Source: Betaproteobacteria bacterium RIFCSPLOWO2_12_FULL_62_13
Lineage (GTDB): Bacteria; Pseudomonadota; Gammaproteobacteria; Burkholderiales; SG8-41
DNA length: 52,679 nucleotides
Assembly (NCBI GenBank): GCA_001771985.1
Contig: MERG01000418.1
Span: 1-52,679 of the forward strand
Direction of reading: 5' to 3'
Part shown: positions 236 to 40,093 of the stretch, piece after piece
Numbering within the stretch: position 1 is the stretch's first letter
How the letters are laid out: every line of letters begins with the position of its first letter
Translations under genes and position numbers: made by a program
Notes under the pieces: model-generated
Seen by the model: only the letters and a program-made list of their open reading frames with translations
The model's database searches: none
Told to the model about the DNA's origin: nothing

Positions 236-321
236 ACGCCAAACCATCAGCCGCGATACCGCAAAGGAGGCAACATCGGCGTGCTCCGCAATCCGGTGGC
301 CCGCGCGAAAGCTTGAAAGGC

Positions 322-411
322 GTGACGGGTGACGGGTGACGGAAAGAGGTGACGGGTGAAGGGTCACGGGTCACGAGTCACGAGCCACGAGTCACGAGTC
401 ACGAGCCACGC
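322..411. repeat. Tandem heptad array forming an imperfect hairpin (GTGACGG units switching to GTCACGA/GCCACGA units)
   Basis: 13 consecutive 7-nt units, with one 6-nt unit at 343-348. The left half (322-362) and right half (363-411) are complementary in 5 of 7 positions per unit. The array ends 11 nt before ATG 422. Confidence 0.8.
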
Positions 412-4983: not shown

Positions 4984-5673
4984 ATGACAACAATTGCCGC
5001 CAACATGCAAGCTGTGCGCGATCGCATCGCATGTGCCGCGCAGGGCGCCGGGCGGCCGCCGTCCTCTATCGCGCTGATTGCAGTGAGTAAAACCTGGCCC
5101 GCGGAGTACATTGCCGCGGCGCACGCGTGCGGCCAGCGCGCGTTCGCCGAGAGTTACGCACAGGAGGCCATGGAGAAGATGAAGCCGCTCGCGCATCTGC
5201 CGCTCGAGTGGCACTTCATCGGGCCGCTCCAGAGCAACAAGACGCGCCCCATCGCCGAGCATTTCCACTGGGTGCACAGCGTGGAGCGCGAGAAGATCGC
5301 GGCACGACTGAACGAGGCGCGCCCCGAACGCCTGCCGCCGCTTAACGTTTGCATCCAGGTCAACGTAAGCGGCGAGGCAAGCAAGAGCGGGGTGGCGCCC
5401 GGTCAGGAGCCTGTCCTCGCGCGCGCCATCGCGGCCCTGCCGCGCCTCAGGCTGCGCGGATTGATGGCGATCCCCGAGCCGACGCGCGACGCGGGGCTTC
5501 AGCGCCGGCGTTTCGCGTTGCTGCGTGAACTCAAGGATGGACTCGTGGCAGCCGGTTTTGCCGTCGACACGCTCTCGATGGGCATGTCGGACGACCTCGA
5601 AGCGGCGATCCTCGAGGGCGCCACCATGGTGCGCGTCGGCACCGCCATCTTCGGCGAACGGATCAAGAGCTAA
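4984..5673 (+). CDS. yggS: YggS-family pyridoxal-phosphate homeostasis protein
   Basis: LIAVSKTWP (PLP lysine) and HFIGPLQSNK motifs. It sits in the conserved position between pilT and proC. Confidence 0.9.
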   Translation: MTTIAANMQAVRDRIACAAQGAGRPPSSIALIAVSKTWPAEYIAAAHACGQRAFAESYAQEAMEKMKPLAHLPLEWHFIGPLQSNKTRPIAEHFHWVHSVEREKIAARLNEARPERLPPLNVCIQVNVSGEASKSGVAPGQEPVLARAIAALPRLRLRGLMAIPEPTRDAGLQRRRFALLRELKDGLVAAGFAVDTLSMGMSDDLEAAILEGATMVRVGTAIFGERIKS

Positions 5674-5872
5674 CCGCAAAGGCGCGAAGGCGCAAAGAAA
5701 GCCTGGACTGTTATGAGACAAGACTATGGTTTATGCTAATGCACTACGGCCGTTTGCTTGTGAAGACTTCGCGGCCATGGTCACAAGCCCCGCCAACGCC
5801 ATCGCCTCCAATGCAATTGCTCATGTCTGTTTTTCTTTGCGTTTCCTTTGCGCCTTCGCGCCTTTGCGGTTA
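5671..5872. repeat. 27-bp perfect inverted repeat of AAGGCGC-type heptads flanking a 148-nt core
   Basis: TAACCGCAAAGGCGCGAAGGCGCAAAG at 5671-5697 equals the reverse complement of 5846-5872. The left arm begins with the yggS stop codon. The right arm ends 20 nt before the proC ATG. The core is visibly less GC-rich. Confidence 0.8.
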
Positions 5873-5892
5873 AGCATTTTTCGAGGAACGAA

Positions 5893-6705: not shown

Positions 6706-7281
6706 ATGCTCGAGAACGCGCTGATATTCCTGGTGAACACCGTCTTCGGGCTGTTCACCATGGCGCTGCTGGTGCGCTTCTACGTGCAGTGGGCGCGCGC
6801 TCCCTACCGCAACCCGTTGTCCGAATTCCTGAGCGCGTTAACGGATTTTATGGTGCTTCCCGCGCGCCGCGTGATCCCCGGCCTGTGGGGGCTCGATCTC
6901 GCGACACTGGTGCTGGCGTGGCTGATCCAGCTCCTGGAATTATTCATCATATTCCTGATCAAAGGCCATCCGCTTGCCGCCGCCGGCAGCGCCTTCGTCG
7001 GACTTGCGTTGTTAGCGGGGCTCATGATCGTCAAGTTCGGACTCTACATCGTGATCGTTGTGGTGGTGGTCCAGGCAGTCATGTCCTGGATCAATCCCTA
7101 TACCCCGCTCGCACCGCTTTTCAACAGCATGAGCCGGCCATTCCTGCGGGTTTTCCAGAAGCTGATCCCGCCGATCGGCAACGTCGACCTGTCGCCGCTG
7201 TTCGTGATCGTCATCTGCCAGCTCCTGCTGATGCTGCCGGTCGCCTATCTCGAGATGACGCTCTCGCAATGGTTGGGATGA
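6706..7281 (+). CDS. yggT: YggT-family integral membrane protein
   Basis: The ATG immediately follows the proC stop codon. Hydrophobic 191-aa product in the conserved yggS-proC-yggT order. Confidence 0.85.
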   Translation: MLENALIFLVNTVFGLFTMALLVRFYVQWARAPYRNPLSEFLSALTDFMVLPARRVIPGLWGLDLATLVLAWLIQLLELFIIFLIKGHPLAAAGSAFVGLALLAGLMIVKFGLYIVIVVVVVQAVMSWINPYTPLAPLFNSMSRPFLRVFQKLIPPIGNVDLSPLFVIVICQLLLMLPVAYLEMTLSQWLG

Positions 7282-7583: not shown

Positions 7584-7596
7584 CACCGATCCTGGA

Positions 7597-7685
7597 GTGA
7601 CGGGTGATGAGTGACAAGTGAGCGGTGACGAGTGACGGGTGATGTAGTTACCCATTTCCCATTTCCGATTTCCTATTTACGATTT
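7597..7685. repeat. Two adjacent, different heptad arrays (GTGAYGR x7, then CCNATTT x5)
   Basis: 7597-7645 reads GTGACGG GTGATGA GTGACAA GTGAGCG GTGACGA GTGACGG GTGATGT. 7651-7685 reads CCCATTT CCCATTT CCGATTT CCTATTT ACGATTT. The second array overlaps the last codons and stop codon of the PLD gene. Confidence 0.75.
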
Positions 7686-10768: not shown

Positions 10769-10793
10769 CGGGCCCGACGCGGGCTAGGAGTTT

Positions 10794-11026
10794 GCCGGAC
10801 CCCGGATCAGAGTCCGGGGCAAGCTTAACCCCGACAAACGCCTCAGGCAAAACCGCCTGCTGGAAAACAGCGAAAAAGGGACTTGAAAACACAAACTCGA
10901 CCCCGCTTTCATCGCCACTCGCAGGCCAACAGGGCGTGTTCTGTCAGATCTCATGCTTCAGGCGGTTTTGCTTTAACAGCCTGTCGGGCCTGCTAAGCTT
11001 GCCCCGGACTTGATCCGGGGTCCGAC
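10794..11026. mobile_element. MITE-like 233-nt element with about 35-bp terminal inverted repeats
   Basis: The left end is GCCGGACCCCGGATCAGAGTCCGGGGCAAGCTTAAC. The reverse complement of the right end is GTCGGACCCCGGATCAAGTCCGGGGCAAGCTTAGC. Inner segments are also complementary (GCAAAACCGCCTG at 10848-10860 against 10960-10972). It has no coding capacity. Confidence 0.55.
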
Positions 11027-11032
11027 GGGCTG

Positions 11033-11653
11033 CTAGAGCACTTCGATGTCGAACCTCTGCAGCAGCTCCGCGGTTTCAGCGAGCGGCAGCCCCATGATAC
11101 CCGAGTAGCTGCCGGTGATCCGCGTGACGAACGCCGCAGCGCGTCCCTGGATCGCGTAGGCGCCGGCCTTGTCGAACGGCTCGCCGCTTGCAATATAGCG
11201 CCGTGCTTCCGCTTCGGAAAGCGTCCGGAACTCGACCGACGATATCGAGACGCTGCTCTCCACCCGATCGCGCAAGGCGACCGCGACGGCGCTGATCACC
11301 CGGTGCTCCCGGCCCGCCAGCGCGGAAAGGATCTGCACGGCGTGCTCGGCGTCCTGCGGTTTGCCGATGATCTCGTCGCCGAGGACCACCGTCGTATCGG
11401 CGGCAAGAACCGGATACGGCTGCAGACGACGCGGCGCCAGCTTTTCGGCGGCGACCCGGGCCTTGGCACGGGCGATGCGCAGCACATATTCGGCGGCCGG
11501 CTCGCCGGCAAGCGGTGTTTCGTCGACGTCGATACCGCGTCGCGGATCCTCCCGCAGCAGCAGCAGCTCGAAGCCGACGCCGATCTGCTTCAACAGATCG
11601 CGCCGGCGCGGGCTGCGCGACGCAAGGTAGATGCGTTTGTCGCTAGTGCTCAT
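11033..11653 (-). CDS. maf: Maf-family nucleoside triphosphate pyrophosphatase
   Basis: IYLASRSPRRRDLLKQIG N-terminal motif and a KAGAYAIQG motif. 206 aa. Confidence 0.85.
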   Translation of the reverse strand: MSTSDKRIYLASRSPRRRDLLKQIGVGFELLLLREDPRRGIDVDETPLAGEPAAEYVLRIARAKARVAAEKLAPRRLQPYPVLAADTTVVLGDEIIGKPQDAEHAVQILSALAGREHRVISAVAVALRDRVESSVSISSVEFRTLSEAEARRYIASGEPFDKAGAYAIQGRAAAFVTRITGSYSGIMGLPLAETAELLQRFDIEVL

Positions 11654-11657
11654 TTTG

Positions 11658-11740
11658 TTGAGGGATTAGGGATCAGGGGCTAGGGACTAGTGCGAAACTC
11701 CGTAAGTGTGTTCTAGCCCCTAGCCTCTAGCCCCTATGGT
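11658..11740. repeat. Heptad hairpin (NNNAGGG x5, 20-nt loop, CTAGCCC x4)
   Basis: The left arm is TTGAGGG ATTAGGG ATCAGGG GCTAGGG ACTAGTG. The right arm is CTAGCCC CTAGCCT CTAGCCC CTATGGT. GGGGCTAG segments are complementary. The right arm overlaps the rlmH stop codon and its last 4 codons. Confidence 0.75.
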
Positions 11741-13371: not shown

Positions 13372-13455
13372 GGAGAGGAGAAAAGAGAAAGGAGAAAGGA
13401 GTAGAGCGCCCCGCGCACGGTTTACACCCCTCTCTTCTCTTTCCTCTCCCCTCTC
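13372..13455. repeat. Polypurine arm / polypyrimidine arm hairpin (GGAGAAA-type heptads)
   Basis: 13372-13406 is GGAGAGGAGAAAAGAGAAAGGAGAAAGGAGTAGAG. 13427-13455 is CCCCTCTCTTCTCTTTCCTCTCCCCTCTC. The arms are complementary apart from A/G transitions. Confidence 0.75.
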
Positions 13456-13466
13456 GCTTCATATGA

Positions 13467-14819
13467 CTAGAGAACGAGTCTGCGTATATCCGAAAGCACG
13501 TTGCTCAGATAGGAGATGAAGCGCGCACCCTGAGCGCCGTCGATCACGCGGTGGTCGTAGGACAGCGACAGGGGCAGGATGAGGCGCGGCGTGAATTCCT
13601 TGCCGTTCCACAGCGGCTTCATCAGCGCCTTGCCGACCCCGAGAATCGCCACCTCAGGCGCGTTGATGATCGGCGTAAACATGGTGCCGCCGATGCCCCC
13701 CAGGCTGGAAATCGAAAAACACCCGCCCTGCAGGTCGGCTGGCGAAACCTTGCCGGTACGCATGCGCGCGCTTGCCTCTCCCAGCTCCTTGGCAAGTTCC
13801 AGCAGGCCTTTCTTGTCGACATCGCGGATCACCGGCACTACCAGGCCGTTCGGCGTGTCGACCGCGATGCCGATGTGATAGTACTGCTTCAGAATCAGGC
13901 TCTCGCCGTCCGCTGAAAGCGAAGCGTTGAACTGCGGGTGCTGCTTGAGCGCCACCACTGAAGCCTTCATCACGAAACCGAGCATGGTGAACTTGATGCC
14001 GCTTTTTCTCGCTTCCTCGGCCTGCGTCTTGCGGAACGCTTCGAGCTCCGTAATGTCGGCTTCGTCATGCTGCGTGACATGAGGAATGCTCACCCAGTTG
14101 CGATGGAGGTTGGCGCCGGACAGCTTCTTGATGCGCAACAACGGCTGCATCTGGATCGGCCCGAACTTCGCGAAATCCACCTGGGGCGGCGGCGGCACAC
14201 CGAAGCCGATGCCGCCTTCCGCAGCGCGCGGGCGGGCGAGCTCGGTCTTGATGTAATTCTGAACGTCTTCCTTGAGAATGCGCTCTTTCGCTCCCGTGCC
14301 TTTCACGCGCGAGAGATCCACGCCAAACTCGCGCGCGAGCCGCCGTACCGCGGGACTGGCGTGTGCCTTGCCAAAAGCGGCTTCGTCCACCCCCTCTTGT
14401 CTCCCCCCCTTAGCCAATGGGGGAGATGGGGGCGGTGCGGCTATGGCCGGCGGCGAAGCAACCGCAGGCTGCGGTGCGGCAAATCCCCCCGCTTCACCTC
14501 CCCGGTTGGGTGGGATTCCCGGCGCTGGAGGCGCCGCAACGGTGGTTGCGTTCTGCGCCGAGATAGCGGGAGCGCCATCAGCCGCCTCCAACAACAGCAC
14601 TAAGGTGCCTTCCGAAACCTTGTCGCCGACTTTGACGTTAAGTTCCTTCACCACACCGGCCGCGGGCGAAGGCACTTCCATCGTGGCCTTGTCGGACTCA
14701 AGCGTGATCAGGGAATCCTCTTTGCCGACAGTGTCGCCGGGCCTGACCAGAAGCTCGATCACCGGCACGTTCTTGAACTCGCCGATGTCGGGAACCTTGA
14801 CTTCCACCAAGTTGCTCAT
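13467..14819 (-). CDS. aceF: Pyruvate dehydrogenase E2, dihydrolipoyllysine-residue acetyltransferase (single lipoyl domain)
   Basis: Lipoyl motif [13 protein letters not shown]3-binding segment [16 protein letters not shown], and catalytic C-terminus [12 protein letters not shown]. Confidence 0.9.
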
Positions 14820-14835
14820 TATTGGCTCAACTTAA

Positions 14836-15105
14836 AGGATTGAGGTACTAGGATTGAGGATTGAGTTATTGATTCTTGCATAATGGGTTGACAAATAAGT
14901 GTCGTCCCCGCGAAGGCGGGGACCCATACTGAGCTGCCACGGAGACTGATGCGCCCTATGGATTCCCGTTTCCACGGGAATGACAACATGTCACTATTTC
15001 TGTCAACCACATATGCAAGGGTCAATAGTTCACATGCGCGCTTGACGCTTTTCCCTCAATCCTCGCTTCTCGATCCTCAATCCTCAATCCTAATACCTCA
15101 ATCCT
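14836..15105. repeat. 270-nt nested palindrome between aceE and aceF
   Basis: The outer AGGATTG heptad arms 14836-14865 and 15076-15105 are complementary at 29 of 30 positions. The middle arms 14875-14901 and 14992-15019 match at roughly 22 of 28. The inner unit is the two-hairpin element at 14901-14985. Confidence 0.85.
14901..14985. repeat. Two-hairpin REP-like element (copy 1)
   Basis: GTCCCCGC-GAAG-GCGGGGAC and ATTCCCG-TTTCCA-CGGGAAT hairpins are separated by a spacer. It has the same architecture as the reverse complement of 28541-28611. Confidence 0.7.
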
Positions 15106-15109
15106 GCCG

Positions 15110-17791
<2,682 letters not shown>

Positions 17792-17850
17792 CTTTGCGGG
17801 GCTACTGTGTTAGGTGATGTGGCACGTCGGTGCCCCGGGCCGGGGGACCG

Positions 17851-17859
17851 ATTATATCA
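17851..17859 (-). promoter_or_regulatory. Candidate extended -10 promoter element for aceE
   Basis: The reverse complement reads TGATATAAT (TGnTATAAT) about 60 nt upstream of the aceE ATG. I found no convincing -35. Confidence 0.35.
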
Positions 17860-17908
17860 CCGCGGTGCGGCGTTTCGCCGCATGCTGCGGCGCAGAAAAA
17901 CAGGAGAA

Positions 17909-18063
17909 GCTTTGCCGCAAAGGACGCTAAGAACGCCAAGGAAAAGCAATAATGCACCCTGTCAACAGATATTTCCCCAGTTCGCCCGAGTCGTCTGATG
18001 ACAAGTTGTCTTCAGATTTTTCTCTACATGCCGTTCCTTTCTTCGCGTCCTTGGCGGCAATGC
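17909..18063. repeat. Inverted AAGGACG-type heptad arms flanking an ~85-nt lower-GC core
   Basis: The left arm contains TTGCCGCAAAGGACGCTAAGAA (17912-17933). The reverse complement of the right arm contains TTGCCGCCAAGGACGCGAAGAA, with 2 mismatches. The right arm abuts the stop codon of the crotonase remnant. Confidence 0.7.
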
Positions 18064-18064
18064 T

Positions 18065-18457
18065 TTAATGGCCTGTAAATTTCGCGGGGCGTTTTTCGAG
18101 AAAGGCGCGCATGCCTTCCTTCTGGTCAGCGGTAGCAAAGGCGAGCGCAAAAAGACTGCTTTCCAATACGCAGGCATTGCCAAGATCGAGGTCGTGGCCG
18201 CGCTGCGCAGCCTGCTTCGCAAGCCGCACCGCCACGGGGCCTTTGGCGGCGATCGCTCGCGCCATCTCCAGGCCCTTTTCCTTGAGTTCGGCGGCGGCAT
18301 AGACGTGATTGGCGAGGCCGATACGAACCGCTTCGTCGGCTTTAACGTGGCGGGCGGTCGTCAGTAATTCGAGAGCCATGGGCGCGCTCGGGCGGTTGAC
18401 CGTGAGAAGATAAATCTCCGTCTCGGGCTGCTCGAGCAGAATGTTTTGGAATGCCAT
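18065..18457 (-). pseudogene. Enoyl-CoA hydratase/isomerase (crotonase) with a large internal in-frame deletion
   Basis: The N-terminus MAFQNILLEQPETEIYLLTVNRP joins directly to the C-terminal third ..LELLTTARHVKADEAVRIGLANHV...QKEGMRAFLEKRPAKFTGH. That leaves 130 aa against the roughly 260 aa typical of crotonases. The oxyanion-hole region is absent. Confidence 0.6.
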
Positions 18458-18675
18458 CGTCAATACCCTTTGTGGAAAATCAAACTTTTCCTGCATTGGA
18501 ACCTGGAATGGATCTTGATAATATTGTCGTCGAACTCAAGCAGCAGGTGAGCCAGCGTACGCCGCCGTGCAGTCCACCGCGAAGGCATGTTGCAGCTTAT
18601 CCTGTGTGAAGTGCCGTTGCAGACTTTGCGCGTCGTGAACAACATGCCAGGATTTTCGGTTGACCCGGACCGAGC

Positions 18676-24559: not shown

Positions 24560-24648
24560 ATCATCGTTTCCCTTCGGTGGCGATCACGCCAGATGCCAGA
24601 TGCCGGACGTCAGGCGACTCTGTCGTCTGACGGCTGACGTGGTGCGGT

Positions 24649-26723: not shown

Positions 26724-29700
26724 CTACATGTTGCGGCGGTACTGGCCGCCCACTTCGAACAACGCCTGCGTGATCTGACCGAGCGAGGCAACGCGCACCG
26801 TGTTCATCAGTTCCGCAAACACGTTGCCCCCGGCAAGCGCGACCTGCTGCAGGCTCTGGAGCGCCGCTGGCGCCGCCTGCTTGTGGCACGCCTGGAATTC
26901 CCCCAGGCGCCTGATCTGGACTTGTTTTTCTTCCTCGGTCGAGCGGGCGAGCTGGATCGTATCGCTCGCCGCCACCGGGTCCGGATTAAGGAAGGTGTTC
27001 ACACCGACGATCGGCAGCCGCCCGTCGTGCTTGAGGGTTTCGTAGTAGAGCGATTCTTCCTGGATCCTGCCGCGCTGGTAGCCGGTCTCCATTGCGCCCA
27101 GCACGCCGCCGCGCTCGGCAATGCGCTCGAACTCCTTGAGCACCGCCTCTTCGACCAGCGCTGTAAGCTCCTCGATGATGAACGAGCCCTGGTTCGGGTT
27201 TTCGTTCCTGGCAAGGCCCCACTCGCGGTTGATGATGAGCTGGATCGCCATGGCGCGCCTGACCGACTCTTCGGTAGGCGTGGTGATCGCCTCGTCGTAG
27301 GCATTGGTGTGCTGGCTGTTGCAGTTGTCGTAGGCGCCGGTCAGCGCCTGCAGCGTGGTGCGGATATCGTTGAAGTCCATTTCCTGCGCGTGAAGCGAAC
27401 GGCCCGAGGTCTGCGTGTGATACTTGAGCTTTTGCGAGCGCTCGTTGGCTCCGTGGTAGTCGCGCATCGCGATCGCCCAGATCCGACGCGCCACGCGTCC
27501 CAGCACCGAGTATTCGGCGTCCATCCCGTTACTGAAGAAGAACGAAAGGTTGGGTGCGAAGTCGTCGATGTGCATGCCGCGCGCGAGGTACGACTCGACG
27601 TAGGTGAAACCGTTGGCGAGCGTGAAAGCAAGCTGCGAAATCGGGTTCGCCCCGGCTTCCGCGATGTGGTAGCCGGATATCGACGCCGAGTAGAAGTTCC
27701 TGACCTCGTTGTGAACGAAGAACTCCTGGATATCGCCCATCATCTTCAACGCGAACTCGGTCGAGAAGATGCAGGTATTCTGGCCCTGGTCCTCCTTCAG
27801 GATGTCGGCCTGCACCGTGCCGCGCACCGTGGCGAGCGTCCATTCCCGGATTTTCTGCGCCTCGTCCTCGGTCGCTTCGCGCCCGTTATCGCGGCGGAAC
27901 GTGTCGATCTGCTGGTCGATTGCGGTATTGAGGAACATCGCCAGGATGGTCGGCGCCGGGCCGTTGATCGTCATCGACACCGAGGTCATCGGATGGCACA
28001 GGTCGAAGCCCTCGTAGAGCGCCTTCATGTCCTCGAGCGTGGCGATCGAGACGCCGGAGTTGCCGATCTTGCCGTAGATGTCAGGCCGCTCGTCCGGATC
28101 GCAGCCGTAGAGCGTGACCGAATCGAACGCGGTGGAGAGCCGCTTCGCCTCGGAATCGCGCGACAGATACTTGAAGCGGCGATTGGTGCGGAACGGATCA
28201 CCCTCGCCCGCGAACATCCGCGTGGGATCTTCGCTCTCGCGTTTGAAGGCGAACACGCCGGCGGTGAACGGGAATGACCCGGGCACGTTTTCCAGCAGAA
28301 GCCACTTCACGATTTCGCCCTCGTCTTCGTAGCGCGGCAGCGCGACTTTGGGAATCCTGGTTCCCGACAGCGTGGCGTGGCCTAGCCGCGTGCGGATCTC
28401 ACGGCCGCGGATTTTCACAACGTACTCGTCGCCGGCGTAGGTCGCGCGCGTACGCGGCCACAGCTCGAGCAGTTTCCTGGAGCGTGCGTCGAGCGCGGCA
28501 TCGCGCGCGGCAATGAGTGCGTCGAGCTCTGCCGCAATCTTGTCAGTCCCGTGTATAGGGGAATCCAACGGGTCCTCCGCATTGCCGGATCCCCGCCTGC
28601 GCGGGGATGACGGCGCTTCGAGCAACATGTTCTTCGCTGCCGTCAGTTGCTGGCGCTCGCGCGCAATCCGCGCCTGGTGGCCGGCCTTCGCATGATAGGT
28701 GCGCACCGTTTCGGCGATCTCGGCAAGATAGCGCGTGCGCGCCGGCGGCACGATTTGTGTAGTCGCGCTCGAGCACCTGACCGCAACCGGAGCAAGCGCG
28801 CCCGGCGTGAGCTTGAGGCCGCGCGCAGCGAGCGTGACGCCGATTGCCTGGTAGAGCGCGGTGACGCCGTCGTCATTGAAGCGCGCTGCGATGGTGCCGA
28901 ACACCGGCATGTCTTCGGGCGGCTCGCGGAATGCCTTGCGGTTGCGCTGTACCTGCTTGCGCACGTCGCGAAGCGCGTCCTGCGCGCCTTTGCGATCGAA
29001 CTTGTTGATCGCCACAAACTGCGCGAAATCGAGCATGTCGATCTTTTCGAGCTGGCTTGCGGCGCCATACTCGGGCGTCATGACATAGAGCGCCACATCG
29101 ACCAGCGGCATGATCGCGGCATCGCCCTGGCCAATCCCCGGAGTCTCGATCATGACCAGATCAAAGCCCGCGATCTTGCACGCGGCGATCACCTCCGGCA
29201 GGCACGGCGACATCCCGCCGCCGCCGGCGCGGGTCGCGAGTGAGCGCATGTAGATCGAGGGGCTGGCGATTGCGTTCATGCGGATGCGGTCGCCGAGCAG
29301 CGCGCCGCCACTCTTGCGCCGTGACGGGTCGACAGCAATCAGCGCAATCCGGAGGCTGTCGTGCTGGTCGAACCGGAAGCGGCGCACCAGCTCATCGGTG
29401 AGCGAGGACTTGCCGGAACCGCCGGTGCCGGTGATGCCGAGCACCGGCACGTTCGTGATGCGGGCTGCGCGCGCGAGCAGCTCCTGGCGCAGACCCTTTT
29501 CGCACTGCGCGTTCTCGAGCGTGGTAATGAACGCCGCAAGCTGGCGGCGCTCCCCGCTTGCGATGCCGTCGAGGCTCACCGGCACGTGCCGGGCGGGATC
29601 GAAGTCGCACACTGCAAGCATGTCGTCGATCATGCCTTGCAGCCCCATGCGCGCGCCGTCTTCCGGTGAATAGAGGCGCGCAATGCCGTAGGCGTGAAGC

Positions 29701-30053
29701 TCCGCCATTTCGGAGGGCACGATCACGCCGCCGCCGCCGCCGAACACCTTGATGTGGGCGCCGCCGCGTTCGCGCAGCAGGTCGATCATGTATTTGAAAA
29801 ATTCGACATGGCCGCCCTGGTAGGAGGAAACCGCGATGCCCTGCACGTCCTCGTCGAGCGCGGCGGTGACGATCTCCTCGACCGAACGGTTGTGGCCGAG
29901 GTGAATGACCTCGGCGCCGCTTGCCTGCACGATGCGGCGCACAATGTTGATCGAGGCGTCGTGCCCGTCGAACAGGCTCGCCGCGGTAATGAAGCGGATC
30001 TTGTGCGTGGCCTGATCGGCCTTGCCTGCCGCCTGCACGCTCAAATCGGTCAC
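26724..30053 (-). CDS. icmF: Fused isobutyryl-CoA mutase IcmF (B12 domain + MeaB-like GTPase + mutase domain)
   Basis: B12 motif [17 protein letters not shown]-loop [17 protein letters not shown], and a long C-terminal methylmalonyl-CoA-mutase-like substrate domain. 1109 aa. Confidence 0.92.
28541..28611. repeat. Two-hairpin REP-like element (copy 2) embedded in frame in icmF
   Basis: The reverse complement is GTCATCCCCGCGCAGGCGGGGATCC..TGGATTCCCCTATACACGGGACTGACA. It aligns end to end with 14901-14985 apart from a shorter spacer. It is translated as [23 protein letters not shown]. Confidence 0.7.
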
Positions 30054-30068
30054 GATTTGCCTCCGCCG

Positions 30069-31040
30069 TCACTCCATCTTGATTCCAGCCTCACGCGCGA
30101 GCCTGCCCTTCTTCACCACCTCGGCCTTGATATACGCTGTAAAGTCGTCCGGCGACGCGCTGGCGGTCAGTTCGACGCCCATGTCGAGAAAGCGGTTGCG
30201 CAGCTCCGCAATGCGGACGACTTTGGCGACTTCCGCGTACAACCGGGCAAGTATTTCACGCGGCGTTCCCGCGGGCGCCACCAGTCCGTTGAACGTGATG
30301 TCCTCAAAGCCCGGCACCCCCGCCTCGTCTATGGTCGGCAGATCAGGAAAGAGCGGGGACCGTTTGCGGCTGGTGACCGCAAGCCCTCTTAACTTGCCGG
30401 CCTTCACGTGAGGCGCCGAGGTGCTCACCTGGTCGAACATCATGGTGACCTGCCCGCTGATCACGTCCACGATTGCCTGGGCGTTGCCTTTGTAAGGCAC
30501 GTGGAGCATTTTCAAGCCCACATGACGGTTGAAAAGCTCGGCTGCCATGTGCCCGGTTCCGCCCGTGCCCGCCGAGGCGTAGGAGATTTCGCCCGGCCGC
30601 GTTTTGGCGAGCGCAATCAGCTCTTTCACCGAGCGCACCGGAAGCGCGGGATTCACGACGAGCACCTGCGGCACGAGGCAGGTGAGCGAGACGCCCGCAA
30701 AGTCTTTCAGCGGATCGTAGCCGGGGTTCGACACGAGCGAAGGCACAACGGCAAACGTGTTCGCCATTGCCAGCAGCGTGTAGCCGTCAGGTGCGGATTT
30801 TGCGACAATGTGGGTGCCTACCAGGCCGCTTGCTCCGGGACGGTTGTCGACGATGACCTGCTGCCCGAGGCTTTGGGTGAGCCGCTGCGCAACCGCGCGC
30901 GCGACGAGATCCACGTTTCCCCCCGGGGCGAAGGGCACAATGACCCGAACCGCACGCGTCGGATAACTTCCCTGGGCCTGCGCGCCGGCAGCGCAGATGG
31001 TCGTAAACGCAGCCGCAACAATCATGCTCGCCTGCTTCAT
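30069..31040 (-). CDS. Bug/TctC-family tripartite tricarboxylate transporter substrate-binding protein
   Basis: Signal peptide followed by YPTRAVRVIVPFAPGGNVD. 323 aa. No tctA or tctB is adjacent. Confidence 0.88.
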   Translation of the reverse strand: MKQASMIVAAAFTTICAAGAQAQGSYPTRAVRVIVPFAPGGNVDLVARAVAQRLTQSLGQQVIVDNRPGASGLVGTHIVAKSAPDGYTLLAMANTFAVVPSLVSNPGYDPLKDFAGVSLTCLVPQVLVVNPALPVRSVKELIALAKTRPGEISYASAGTGGTGHMAAELFNRHVGLKMLHVPYKGNAQAIVDVISGQVTMMFDQVSTSAPHVKAGKLRGLAVTSRKRSPLFPDLPTIDEAGVPGFEDITFNGLVAPAGTPREILARLYAEVAKVVRIAELRNRFLDMGVELTASASPDDFTAYIKAEVVKKGRLAREAGIKME

Positions 31041-35905: not shown

Positions 35906-37093
35906 ATGACCAATGACCCGGTAGTCATCGTCAGTGCCGCACGCACGCCAATCGGCGGATTCATGGGGAATCTCAAGGCGCTCGCCGCACCCGAGCTCGG
36001 CGCGGTCGCGATCCGTGCCGCAGTCGATCGCGCGGGCGTTAGACCCGACGAAGTACAGGAAGTAATCATGGGCAACGTATTGCCCGCAGGCCAGGGCCAG
36101 GCGCCGGCGCGGCAGGCGGCGCTCGGCGCGGGGCTTCCGCCGGCGGTCGGCTGCATGACCATCAACAAGGTGTGCGGTTCCGGCATGAAGGCAGCGATGC
36201 TCGCGTACGATCTTATTACGCTCGGCACCAACGACATCATGACAGCGGGCGGCATGGAAAGCATGTCGAACGCGCCCTACCTTCTACCCAAGGCACGCGG
36301 CGGCTTGCGCCTCGGCCATGGCGAAGTCAAGGACCACATGTTCCTCGACGGACTGGAGGATGCCTACGACCGTGGCCGCCTCATGGGCATCTTCGCTGAA
36401 GATTGCGCCGCAAGATACCAGTTCTCGCGCGAAGCGCAGGACCGCTGTGCGATCACTTCCCTGACCCGCGCGCAGGCCGCAACCAGAAATGGCAGCTTTA
36501 CGGCGGAAATTGTTCCAGTGAAAATTACCGGGAGCAAGACCGAAACCACGGTGACGATCGACGAGCAACCGCTCAAGGCGAACCTCGACAAGATCCCGCG
36601 GCTCAAGCCTGTTTTCAGGAAAGACGGCACCGTGACGCCCGCCAACTCGAGTTCGATTTCCGACGGTGCAGCCGCCATGGTGCTGATGAAGCTGTCAGAG
36701 GCTGAGAAACGCGGCATCCGGCCGCTCGCGAAAGTCGTCGCCTGCGCCGCACATTCGCAGGAACCGCAGTGGTTCACGACCGCACCGGTCGGCGCAATCC
36801 GAAAACTCTTTGAAAAAACCGGCTGGGACGCGAAAACGACCGATCTCTTCGAGATCAACGAAGCATTCGCGGTGGTGGCGATGGCAGCGATGCAGGACCT
36901 CGAACTGCCGCAAGACAAGGTCAACGTCCACGGCGGTGCGTGCGCGCTGGGGCACCCGTTAGGCGCATCGGGGGCGCGCATCATGGTGACACTGCTTGCC
37001 GCCCTCGAAAAATACGGACTGAAGCGCGGCATCGCAAGCCTGTGCATCGGGGGCGGTGAAGCGACCGCGATCGCGCTCGAGCGGATGAGCTAG
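35906..37093 (+). CDS. Acetyl-CoA C-acetyltransferase (thiolase II)
   Basis: Active-site NKVCGSGMKA, then NVHGGACALGHPLGASG and CIGGGEATA. 395 aa. Confidence 0.92.
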   Translation: MTNDPVVIVSAARTPIGGFMGNLKALAAPELGAVAIRAAVDRAGVRPDEVQEVIMGNVLPAGQGQAPARQAALGAGLPPAVGCMTINKVCGSGMKAAMLAYDLITLGTNDIMTAGGMESMSNAPYLLPKARGGLRLGHGEVKDHMFLDGLEDAYDRGRLMGIFAEDCAARYQFSREAQDRCAITSLTRAQAATRNGSFTAEIVPVKITGSKTETTVTIDEQPLKANLDKIPRLKPVFRKDGTVTPANSSSISDGAAAMVLMKLSEAEKRGIRPLAKVVACAAHSQEPQWFTTAPVGAIRKLFEKTGWDAKTTDLFEINEAFAVVAMAAMQDLELPQDKVNVHGGACALGHPLGASGARIMVTLLAALEKYGLKRGIASLCIGGGEATAIALERMS

Positions 37094-37173
37094 TGATGGG
37101 TGATGGGTGATGGGTCATGAGTGATCAATGTTCTTACGCATTCCCCATTACTCATTGCCCATTACTCATTACC
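37093..37173. repeat. Heptad hairpin (GTGATGG x5, 15-nt loop, CCCATTA-type x4)
   Basis: The left arm is GTGATGG GTGATGG GTGATGG GTCATGA GTGATCA. The right arm is CCCCATT ACTCATT GCCCATT ACTCATT ACC. The array starts on the G of the thiolase TAG stop codon. Confidence 0.8.
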
Positions 37174-39950: not shown

Positions 39951-39952
39951 CA

Positions 39953-40072
39953 GTGAGGACCGGGGAGTGAGGACTCAGGACTGAGGACTGAGGATCCAGA
40001 ACATTGCTGGCATTCGGAGTAGCAACATCAGGTTGAGTATGTTTTCCTTGGCGTCTTTGGCGTCTTGGCGGT
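39953..40072. repeat. Two heptad arrays (NNNAGGA x6 at 39953-39994; CTTGGCG-type at 40046-40072)
   Basis: The first array reads GTGAGGA CCGGGGA GTGAGGA CTCAGGA CTGAGGA CTGAGGA. The second reads CCTTGGCGTCTTTGGCGTCTTGGCGG. They lie between liuB and liuE. Confidence 0.7.
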
Positions 40073-40093
40073 GATAGATTTTCAGGATTTCGC

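Follow-up and report, generated by a model that had tools for sequence, protein, structure and literature searches.

Nested repeat layers in the long aceE-aceF spacer of a betaproteobacterial genome

The aceE and aceF genes, which encode E1 and E2 of pyruvate dehydrogenase (PDH), are separated by a 290-nt spacer (14820-15109) in contig MERG01000418.1 (assembly GCA_001771985.1) of Betaproteobacteria bacterium RIFCSPLOWO2_12_FULL_62_13, of which the whole analyzed stretch of 52,679 nt is referred to here as the window. With a probability that we place at roughly 0.55, three repeat layers of independent nature make up this spacer, each of them sitting at the apex of the next. The locus belongs to known kinds of repeats, namely, a heptanucleotide-repeat hairpin and a REPIN, a doublet of repetitive extragenic palindromic (REP) sequences, to which an unexplained middle layer is added. 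The spacer is most likely tolerated repeat DNA, and a dedicated role in setting E1:E2 appears not to be favored.

Anatomy of the spacer

The spacer is delimited by the stop codon of aceE (TAA, 15112-15110) and the start codon of aceF (ATG, 14819-14817). The initial annotation held that the E1/E2 gap is normally short, and the comparison of gap lengths agrees: among 60 relatives in which both gene ends could be placed, the median gap is 24 nt, reaching at least 100 nt in five and at least 250 nt in one. The GC content of the spacer is 48%, compared with 63% for the window. Since the minus strand carries both genes, the 5' arm in the mRNA is the array of AGGATTG units that runs from 15105 to 15054 (Table 1).

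The outer layer is an inverted repeat of 30 nt (14836-14865 / 15076-15105), which is complementary at 29 of its 30 positions (97%). It had been described as a pair of 30-nt arms with this degree of matching, which holds for the paired part, but the array on the aceE side actually extends to 52 nt and 7.4 units. The structure is asymmetric because the stretch 15033-15053 is unpaired and extra heptads occupy 15054-15075; the former may, on the predicted fold, be a leftover of the original hairpin loop. The middle inverted arms, which had also been noticed, are real, as CTTGCATAnnnGGTTGACA occurs once per strand (14875-14893 and 15001-15019; chance expectation 0.00), and the extended arms 14862-14893 / 15001-15032 are 78% complementary over 32 nt. 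The innermost part contains two perfect 8-bp hairpins, at 14901-14928 and 14960-14985.

Folded in the mRNA sense, the spacer RNA has a predicted energy of -139 kcal/mol, compared with -84.3 +/- 4.7 kcal/mol in dinucleotide shuffles (z = -11.7; a separate shuffle set gives z = -9.7). The predicted fold is one nearly continuous helix, with 101 pairs in the fold from stop to start, in line with the very long stem-loop that had been suspected. At the stem base, 4 nt on the aceE side and 16 nt on the aceF side leave 20 nt between the stop and the start in this fold, and the RNA that follows the stem reads UUUAAGUUGAGCC.

REPINs are small mobile REP doublets that form hairpins (Bertels and Rainey; bioRxiv 10.1101/2021.07.10.451892), and RAYT transposases are responsible for their duplication. 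Judged by its sequence, the inner unit (14901-14985) is a REPIN, i.e., a doublet of inverted REPs: REP1 and REP2 are inverted copies of GTCRTYCCCGYG...CGGGRAYCCA that lie 31 nt apart, and each carries a short palindrome with a perfect 8-bp stem (GTCCCCGC/GCGGGGAC and ATTCCCGT/ACGGGAAT). The arrangement of two inverted REPs, each with a palindrome, around a variable spacer and with a total of about 85 nt resembles that of published REPINs (bioRxiv 10.1101/2021.07.10.451892), and the earlier label of REP-like was right. The REP of the window is also close to the Neisseria REP 21-mer ATTCCCGCGCAGGCGGGAATC.

When plasmid records were searched with the interior of the palindrome, 14901-14985 alone was matched, at 74-77% identity, in Azospirillum, Novosphingobium, and Sphingopyxis. 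When five copies, taken from four genomes, are aligned, all invariant columns belong to the REPs (CGTCATCCCCGCGAAGGCGGGGATCCA ... TGGATTCCCGCTTTCGCGGGAATGACRA), and no relationship is seen between the spacers or between the flanks; it is the REPs that are conserved across Alpha- and Betaproteobacteria, and not the sequence between and around them, which fits the published definition of a REPIN. The window itself contains one intact and one degenerate copy. The inner unit had been reported to recur inside icmF, and a related copy is indeed present there, matching the inner unit at 20/22 positions in hairpin 1 and 22/26 in hairpin 2, but it is degenerate rather than faithful, with a shorter and diverged spacer. 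REPINs are almost exclusively extragenic, and the window differs in this respect, since one of its two copies is intragenic. A second in-gene case besides icmF comes from Sphingopyxis indica plasmid pMC4 (locus L214), where the annotated ileS coding sequence contains a member of this REPIN family at 30815-30891. The proposal of an element within an element is supported: the inner unit recurs alone with other flanks in other genomes, and the heptad arms represent a hairpin class of a generic kind, present in many other spacers and many organisms.

The middle arms form an imperfect inverted repeat, about 35-45 nt long, that is present as a single copy. They lie outside the REPIN, since other REPIN copies lack them; the REPIN is at the apex of the middle palindrome, which itself is positioned off to one side of the heptad-hairpin loop. 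If the middle repeat begins at ATTGA, AGTT is found at both ends (14863-14866 and 15026-15029) as a possible 4-bp target-site duplication, but these bases are also readable as an extension of the inverted repeat. This layer could represent the ends of a rare MITE (miniature inverted-repeat transposable element) or a local inverted duplication.

It is improbable that all 270 nt are one MITE that was inserted as a unit, with the heptad arrays as its terminal inverted repeats. Terminal inverted repeats are present (78% over 32 nt for the middle arms and 97% over 30 nt for the outer arms) and would automatically make the AGGATTG arrays point inwards; the AT-rich composition of the spacer, the AGGATYR arms at another locus (rlmH-maf) in the relative L085, and a repeat unit unlike that of the nearest relatives at the same locus also speak for such an insertion. 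However, multiple copies with a conserved interior, which characterize MITEs, were not encountered, as no second copy of the middle arms was found in the window, 205 fetched loci, the Joint Genome Institute (JGI) metagenomes, or plasmids (zero matches to the pattern TTGAYYCTTGCATANNNGGTTGACA in the JGI metagenomes and none by BLAST of the fetched loci and plasmids). Furthermore, arm lengths change by whole repeat units, the REPIN occurs elsewhere without the other layers, and the loops of AGGATTG hairpins share no sequence among the matches listed. The AGGATTG hairpins listed are not MITEs with a conserved core because their loops are unrelated.

Short-read assemblers struggle with palindromes and tandem repeats, and the initial annotation had raised the possibility of misassembly. 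The exact AceF protein is encoded on two more contigs from different European Nucleotide Archive samples; these metagenome contigs are 99.67% identical to the window overall, with single-nucleotide polymorphisms in aceE and aceF, yet the three assemblies show zero differences over 14820-15109. Misassembly is very unlikely because all 290 nt are identical in three assemblies that differ by 0.33% elsewhere. In addition, the palindrome is imperfect and asymmetric, and analogous structures occur in the same gap of relatives, such that a chimeric or fold-back contig has a next to negligible chance of being the source of the spacer.

Two other arrays vary among the three strains by precisely one unit (+8 nt at 5686 and +7 nt at 24591), a signature of slippage. 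Strain L081 has an additional heptad, GATGCCG, in the array at 24591 (24588-24604), and a 1-nt deletion at 11730, in the heptad arm that overlaps the rlmH stop. Strain L082 is about 10% divergent over 17800-18130 and has a 6-nt insertion only there, with 0.3% divergence elsewhere; to judge from the divergence pattern, this segment looks like a recombined allele.

Table 1. Coordinates of the features discussed (window positions unless a locus is named)
Feature	Position	Strand	Description
aceE	15110..17791	-	pyruvate dehydrogenase E1, 893 aa; TIGR00759, 1507.6 bits (cut-off 859.9)
aceF	13467..14819	-	dihydrolipoyllysine acetyltransferase E2, 450 aa; TIGR01348, 606.7 bits (cut-off 552.1)
Purine-rich heptad array	15054..15105	-	(AGGATTG) x 7.4 on the mRNA strand, 52 nt; 5' arm, 4 nt after the aceE stop
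Pyrimidine-rich heptad array	14836..14865	-	(CAATCCT) x 4.3 on the mRNA strand; 3' arm, ends 16 nt before the aceF ATG
Single-occurrence 21-nt stretch	15033..15053	.	largely unpaired in the predicted fold; from sequence and fold
Middle inverted repeat, left arm	14866..14900	.	TTATTGATTCTTGCATAATGGGTTGACAAATAAGTG; from inverted-repeat search and fold
Middle inverted repeat, right arm	14986..15032	.	from inverted-repeat search and fold
REPIN (by sequence)	14901..14985	.	REP1 14901-14928, variable spacer 14929-14959, inverted REP2 14960-14985
Degenerate REPIN copy	28540..28607	-	MeaB-mutase interdomain linker of the fused isobutyryl-CoA mutase IcmF, open reading frame (ORF) 26724-30053
Sister heptad arrays	315..410	+	GTGACGG / GTCACGA; spacer of co-directional genes
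Sister structure	5668..5875	+	octamer arms CGCAAAGG, 30 nt, 97% complementary, 142-nt interior
Sister heptad arrays	7595..7685	+	GAGTGAC / CCCATTT; between convergent genes
Sister hairpin	11661..11736	-	GGGAYTA / CTAGCCC; fills the rlmH-maf spacer, overlaps the rlmH stop codon
Sister hairpin	13376..13455	-	AGGAGAA / CCTCTCT; aceF-nadD spacer
Sister hairpin	17906..18066 (within 17895-18070)	-	arms of ~9-nt period; begins at the stop codon of the upstream neighbor of aceE, an enoyl-CoA hydratase-like gene
Sister hairpin	37093..37173	+	GTGATGG / CCCATTA; begins at the upstream TAG, ends 7 nt before the next ATG
TIGR02436 in loop, metagenome loci	L128 1498-1986; L160 2003-2447; L175 4870-5282; L194 1121-1519; L203 4195-4715; L117 3901-4224
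TIGR02436 genes in repeat-arm hairpin loops, plasmid loci	L206-L211, L215-L222

Repeat-arm hairpins in the window, relatives, and metagenomes

The outer layer belongs to a class of hairpins with short tandem-repeat arms. Tandem Repeats Finder places 18 of 22 arrays with a period of 7-9 in the intergenic 16% of the window (binomial p = 2.5e-11), and most of these arrays are adjacent, roughly complementary pairs that fold into spacer-filling hairpins. Such hairpins occur in at least seven other spacers of the window, and their unit varies between loci (GTGACGG, GGGAYTA, AGGAGAA, GTGATGG, and CGCAAAGG).

Several individual arrays deserve description. The structure at 5668-5875 has an AT-richer interior, and its palindrome takes in the upstream TAA; strain L081 has its extra 8-nt unit here, at 5686. 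A palindrome of about 280 nt (10769-11048) with nested arms of about 65 nt fills the 264-nt maf-RNase G spacer and folds at -152 kcal/mol on the mRNA strand; it contains no heptads, and its sequence is unrelated to that of the aceE-aceF palindrome. In the spacer 2440-2644, 12.4 copies of the 8-mer TCGGGAGA (alternatively, a 24-mer x 4) extend over 2458-2556, with no inverted partner noted. At 39951-40093, a heptad array (TGAGGAC x 5.9) that starts from the stop of the upstream gene is followed by a non-complementary 9-mer array, CTTGGCGT, and the plus (mRNA) strand folds at -41.9 kcal/mol versus -19.4 kcal/mol for the minus strand. Upstream of aceE, an enoyl-CoA hydratase (ECH)-like ORF of 143 aa (18065-18496, minus strand) matches Pfam ECH_1 positions 148-250 only; it may be truncated or frameshifted, the syntenic gene of the relative L084 having 261 aa.

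Outside the species cluster, the best AceF match is 79% identical over its full length, and the timing and order of the insertions cannot be traced because of this distance. The gene order ECH-aceE-aceF-nadD-rsfS-rlmH-maf-rng is common to the window and its nearest relatives. Two of the three nearest relatives fetched (L084 and L085), along with the more distant L061, carry repeat-arm hairpins between aceE and aceF, with GTGAACG-type units that start 4-5 nt after the stop; the gap is 191 nt in L084 (fold z = -8.4), 159 nt in L085 (z = -4.2), and about 145 nt in L061 (z = -8.1). In the aceF-nadD gap, the window shares a purine/pyrimidine hairpin with L083 and L084, and GGTGAGC heptads are found in L085, whose rlmH-maf gap has AGGATYR arms. 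The position of the hairpin is thus conserved while its sequence turns over, since the relatives carry other units at the same junctions. The closest relatives by AceE (83% identical) have short aceE-aceF gaps. In L001, the closest of all by AceE, the aceF linker (~6980-7040) contains the REP-like palindrome CCCTCTCCCTCAATCCCTCCCCCAAGGGGGGAGGG, soon followed by a TGA, and this palindrome may represent a repeat inserted within the gene. Among the relatives, an aceE-aceF gap of comparable length occurs only in a Gallionellaceae metagenome-assembled genome (L023, 3678-3995), in which the 317-nt gap has a 16-nt inverted repeat, CAGGGCATTGAAAAAC / GTTTTTCAATACCCTG, just after the stop and just before the start, although as a whole its fold exceeds that of shuffles only modestly (z = -2.4).

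A metagenome scan for (AGGATTG)x3 yielded at least 120 loci. Among the matches listed, with 128 arrays, a complementary array lies downstream in 48 and upstream in 2, and the ratio is 39 to 1 where at least 400 nt are available on both sides. The hairpin loops among these listed matches are mostly 6-86 nt long, such that the 210 nt between the arms in the window fall in the long tail of loop lengths. Of the 17 co-directional cases among the matches listed, 13 have a purine arm that begins at most 8 nt from the upstream stop, often with the stop within the first unit, as in TGAGGATTG or TAGGATTG. Assigned by the codon-position GC method, the flanking genes of the listed matches are co-directional in 21 cases, convergent in 6, and divergent in 2, which is near the ordinary expectation. 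A large excess of convergent pairs obtained with the longest-ORF method was discarded in favor of these counts; gene orientation from the longest ORF is biased because the purine arm itself closes open frames.

The purine-first rule is uninformative on the sense of the transcript because it reads identically on both strands; the 5' position of the purine arm in the mRNA was accordingly rejected as evidence of an RNA function, the reverse complement having the same arrangement. The idea that heptads put stops in all three frames was also abandoned, since the array here closes two of the three, and the property follows from purine richness in any case. As a cause of the rule, we infer that arrays may nucleate at the stop codon and Shine-Dalgarno region and that the inverted copy would survive on the non-coding side only. 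The arms of the class would grow and shrink by slippage, and the unit would turn over between loci and species.

The 2007 report on the excess of heptanucleotide repeats is said to be that of Mrazek et al. The excess was found in Burkholderia, Xanthomonas, and cyanobacteria, as cited in the passages of PMC4692102 and PMC4679880 considered here. In Xanthomonas, the passages of Rehm et al. 2015 (PMC4692102) considered describe paired convergent heptamer arrays, 70-75 per genome, with slippage as their proposed origin. The Xanthomonas GGGAATC paired simple sequence repeats resemble those of the window as intergenic tandem heptamers with variable copy number (same passages, PMC4692102). At aceE-aceF, tandem heptamers of at least two units are intergenic, with a period of 7 and 4.3 and 7.4 copies (Tandem Repeats Finder), and the close convergent arrays lie on opposite strands, as in the Xanthomonas type. 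However, G3+ tracts (GGGNATC) are absent, AGGATTG having GG only, and the idea of a G-quadruplex is inapplicable because there is no G3 tract. The locus-to-locus difference in units is, as far as those passages go, a feature of the window and not of the Xanthomonas repeats. The 48:2 purine-first ratio among the matches listed, the anchoring at stops, and the loop cargo come from the present analysis and are absent from the considered passages of Rehm et al. 2015.

Genes of the TIGR02436 family in hairpin loops

Where AGGATTG hairpins have loops of 350-540 nt, the loop gene among the matches listed belongs to TIGR02436 (103-129 bits; cut-off 24), the 'four helix bundle protein' family, alias 23S rRNA intervening-sequence protein, which is related to Avd (Table 1). 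A sample drawn independently of the repeats comprised 14 TIGR02436 genes carried on plasmids (of cultured cyanobacteria, Azospirillum, and Gemmatirosa) and one incidental metagenome case; inverted arrays of 7-8-nt repeats flank 12 of these 15 genes on both sides. In the flanked genes, the purine arm precedes the start codon, the pyrimidine arm immediately follows the stop codon, and the unit varies by locus. These loop genes are often located inside one operon, such as cas10-cmr3, cas6-cas4, or nrdB/nrdA. No published link between TIGR02436 genes and repeat-arm hairpins was found in the literature.

By tblastn, no TIGR02436 gene is present in the window, and the aceE-aceF loop is without one; this by-product therefore bears on the nature of the outer arms and not on the cargo of this locus. 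Other loop cargo in the class is represented by the aceE-aceF hairpin of L084, the loop of which contains REP-like hairpins of another family. The 23S rRNA intervening sequences offer a parallel, as their flanking complementary stem loops out cargo in the manner of repeat-arm hairpins, and the same TIGR02436 family occurs in the long loops. In contrast to them, the aceE-aceF context is an mRNA, and its loop lacks an S23p/four-helix-bundle gene.

A more far-reaching interpretation, which we regard as doubtful, is that hairpins with short tandem-repeat arms are a distinct, widespread device not yet recognized as one, anchored at stops and always with the purine arm first, that acts as a 'loop-out slot' in operon spacers. 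The cargo form with a four-helix-bundle gene would then be the mRNA counterpart of the rRNA intervening sequences, in which the protein or the arms may aid the spread or maintenance of the slot, and aceE-aceF would be a slot with a REPIN-inside-palindrome cargo. The swap from GTGAACG in the relatives to AGGATTG here would, on this interpretation, reflect copy-paste mobility of the arms and not local slippage.

Tolerated repeat DNA and its rivals

For the composite of three layers, a mechanism is proposed in which the spacer would be transcribed together with aceEF and fold into a helix of about 100 bp. The stem base would put the aceE stop about 20 nt from the aceF start, with 270 nt looped out; this distance is normal for the operon, and translation of aceF could therefore stay coupled to that of aceE. 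Because looping-out would spare the coupling, self-folding DNA, and apparently little else, may accumulate in the tight junction, which would also explain why most of the enlarged aceE-aceF gaps of other lineages are self-folding. If mRNA processing or the E1:E2 ratio were affected at all, this would be incidental.

Searches for other signals gave negative results. No sigma-70 promoter (-35/-10 with a spacing of 16-18 nt) was detected in the gap, in which two TTGACA hexamers face inwards without a -10 partner, and no terminator-like site was found on either strand of 14600-15300. The Rfam 15 covariance models (E up to 10) gave no match in the spacer and two chance-level matches, both inside aceE, and the gap contains no credible ORF, the few present being short and unsupported.

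Imperfect intercistronic palindromes of 100-300 nt that fold in mRNA include Correia/NEMIS in Neisseria, ERIC/IRU and YPAL in enterobacteria, and REP/BIME in Escherichia coli malE-malF; co-transcribed palindromic repeats of the Correia/NEMIS, ERIC, and REP/BIME families are cleaved or alter the stability of neighboring cistrons, with stabilization of the upstream one among the effects. By analogy with Correia, ERIC, and REP/BIME, cleavage or stabilization of the mRNA at the spacer is possible. Unlike Correia, ERIC, YPAL, and BIME, which are single elements, aceE-aceF comprises three nested layers; the spacer has no sequence relation to them and no Rfam match, and no multiple copies of the composite are evident.

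These precedents, together with the very stable stem, its near-perfect 30-bp outer helix, and the similar hairpins at the junction in L084, L085, and L061, are what a dedicated post-transcriptional PDH element could be built on, i.e., an RNase III/RNase E processing site or a stability barrier selected for the E1:E2 ratio. The sense strand also folds better than the antisense strand here. We nevertheless consider such an element unlikely, since the same hairpin class is found in unrelated spacers (rlmH-maf, aceF-nadD, and others) and in many organisms, the interior consists of generic mobile or single-occurrence repeats with no conserved motif, and the closest relatives (83% AceE identity) have short gaps. 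Moreover, the class shows no strand-consistent wobble signal: in the window, stability is higher for the sense strand at 5 loci and for the antisense strand at 1, with 2 ties, whereas in 17 co-directional metagenome hairpins the sense strand is more stable in 4 and the antisense strand in 12. G-U wobble thus gives no consistent sign of RNA-level structure, the window and the metagenomes being in disagreement. In the ~10% divergent allele of L082, the sister hairpin at 17895-18070 shows one compensatory pair and several disruptive changes and is 16-18 kcal/mol weaker. Selection on pairing through compensatory changes was likewise left without support, as the pairing decays in this allele.

An action at the DNA level, such as cruciform extrusion or the binding of nucleoid or topology proteins (BIMEs bind IHF and gyrase) with an effect on supercoiling or replication, would be compatible with a wobble asymmetry that does not favor the transcript strand across the class, as a DNA-level or neutral structure predicts, and with a purine-first arrangement shared by both strands. 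A protein-binding motif was not identified in the spacer, however, and because the arms are anchored at stop codons, a link to gene boundaries and translation is suggested instead of one to chromosome structure, which leaves this explanation with little probability.

Against the composite of tolerated, independently acquired layers, several points have to be weighed. It leaves the origin of the middle arms without explanation. The 'empty' allele, a heptad hairpin without the interior, was not found, and the order of insertion is derived only from the independence of the layers. The recurrence of hairpins at the aceE-aceF junction in several relatives, despite turnover, means that the structure could be selected. 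In this window, folding of the mRNA-sense strand is favored over that of the antisense strand by 8.6 kcal/mol, although the metagenome trend is opposite. Finally, the anatomy, class membership, distribution, and stability between strains are observed, but co-transcription, in vivo folding, and translational coupling across the stem are all inferred.

For the locus itself, the outcome is deflationary: the spacer would consist of stacked repeats of kinds that are common in this genome, and its annotation as a PDH regulator should therefore await transcript data. Its more general implication is that tight operon junctions can absorb hundreds of bases when the insert folds back and the stop and start stay adjacent. 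The class-level regularities are more interesting than the locus, since the orientation rule, the stop anchoring, the turnover of units at conserved positions, and the four-helix-bundle loop genes provide testable handles on the unexplained excess of heptanucleotide repeats between bacterial genes.

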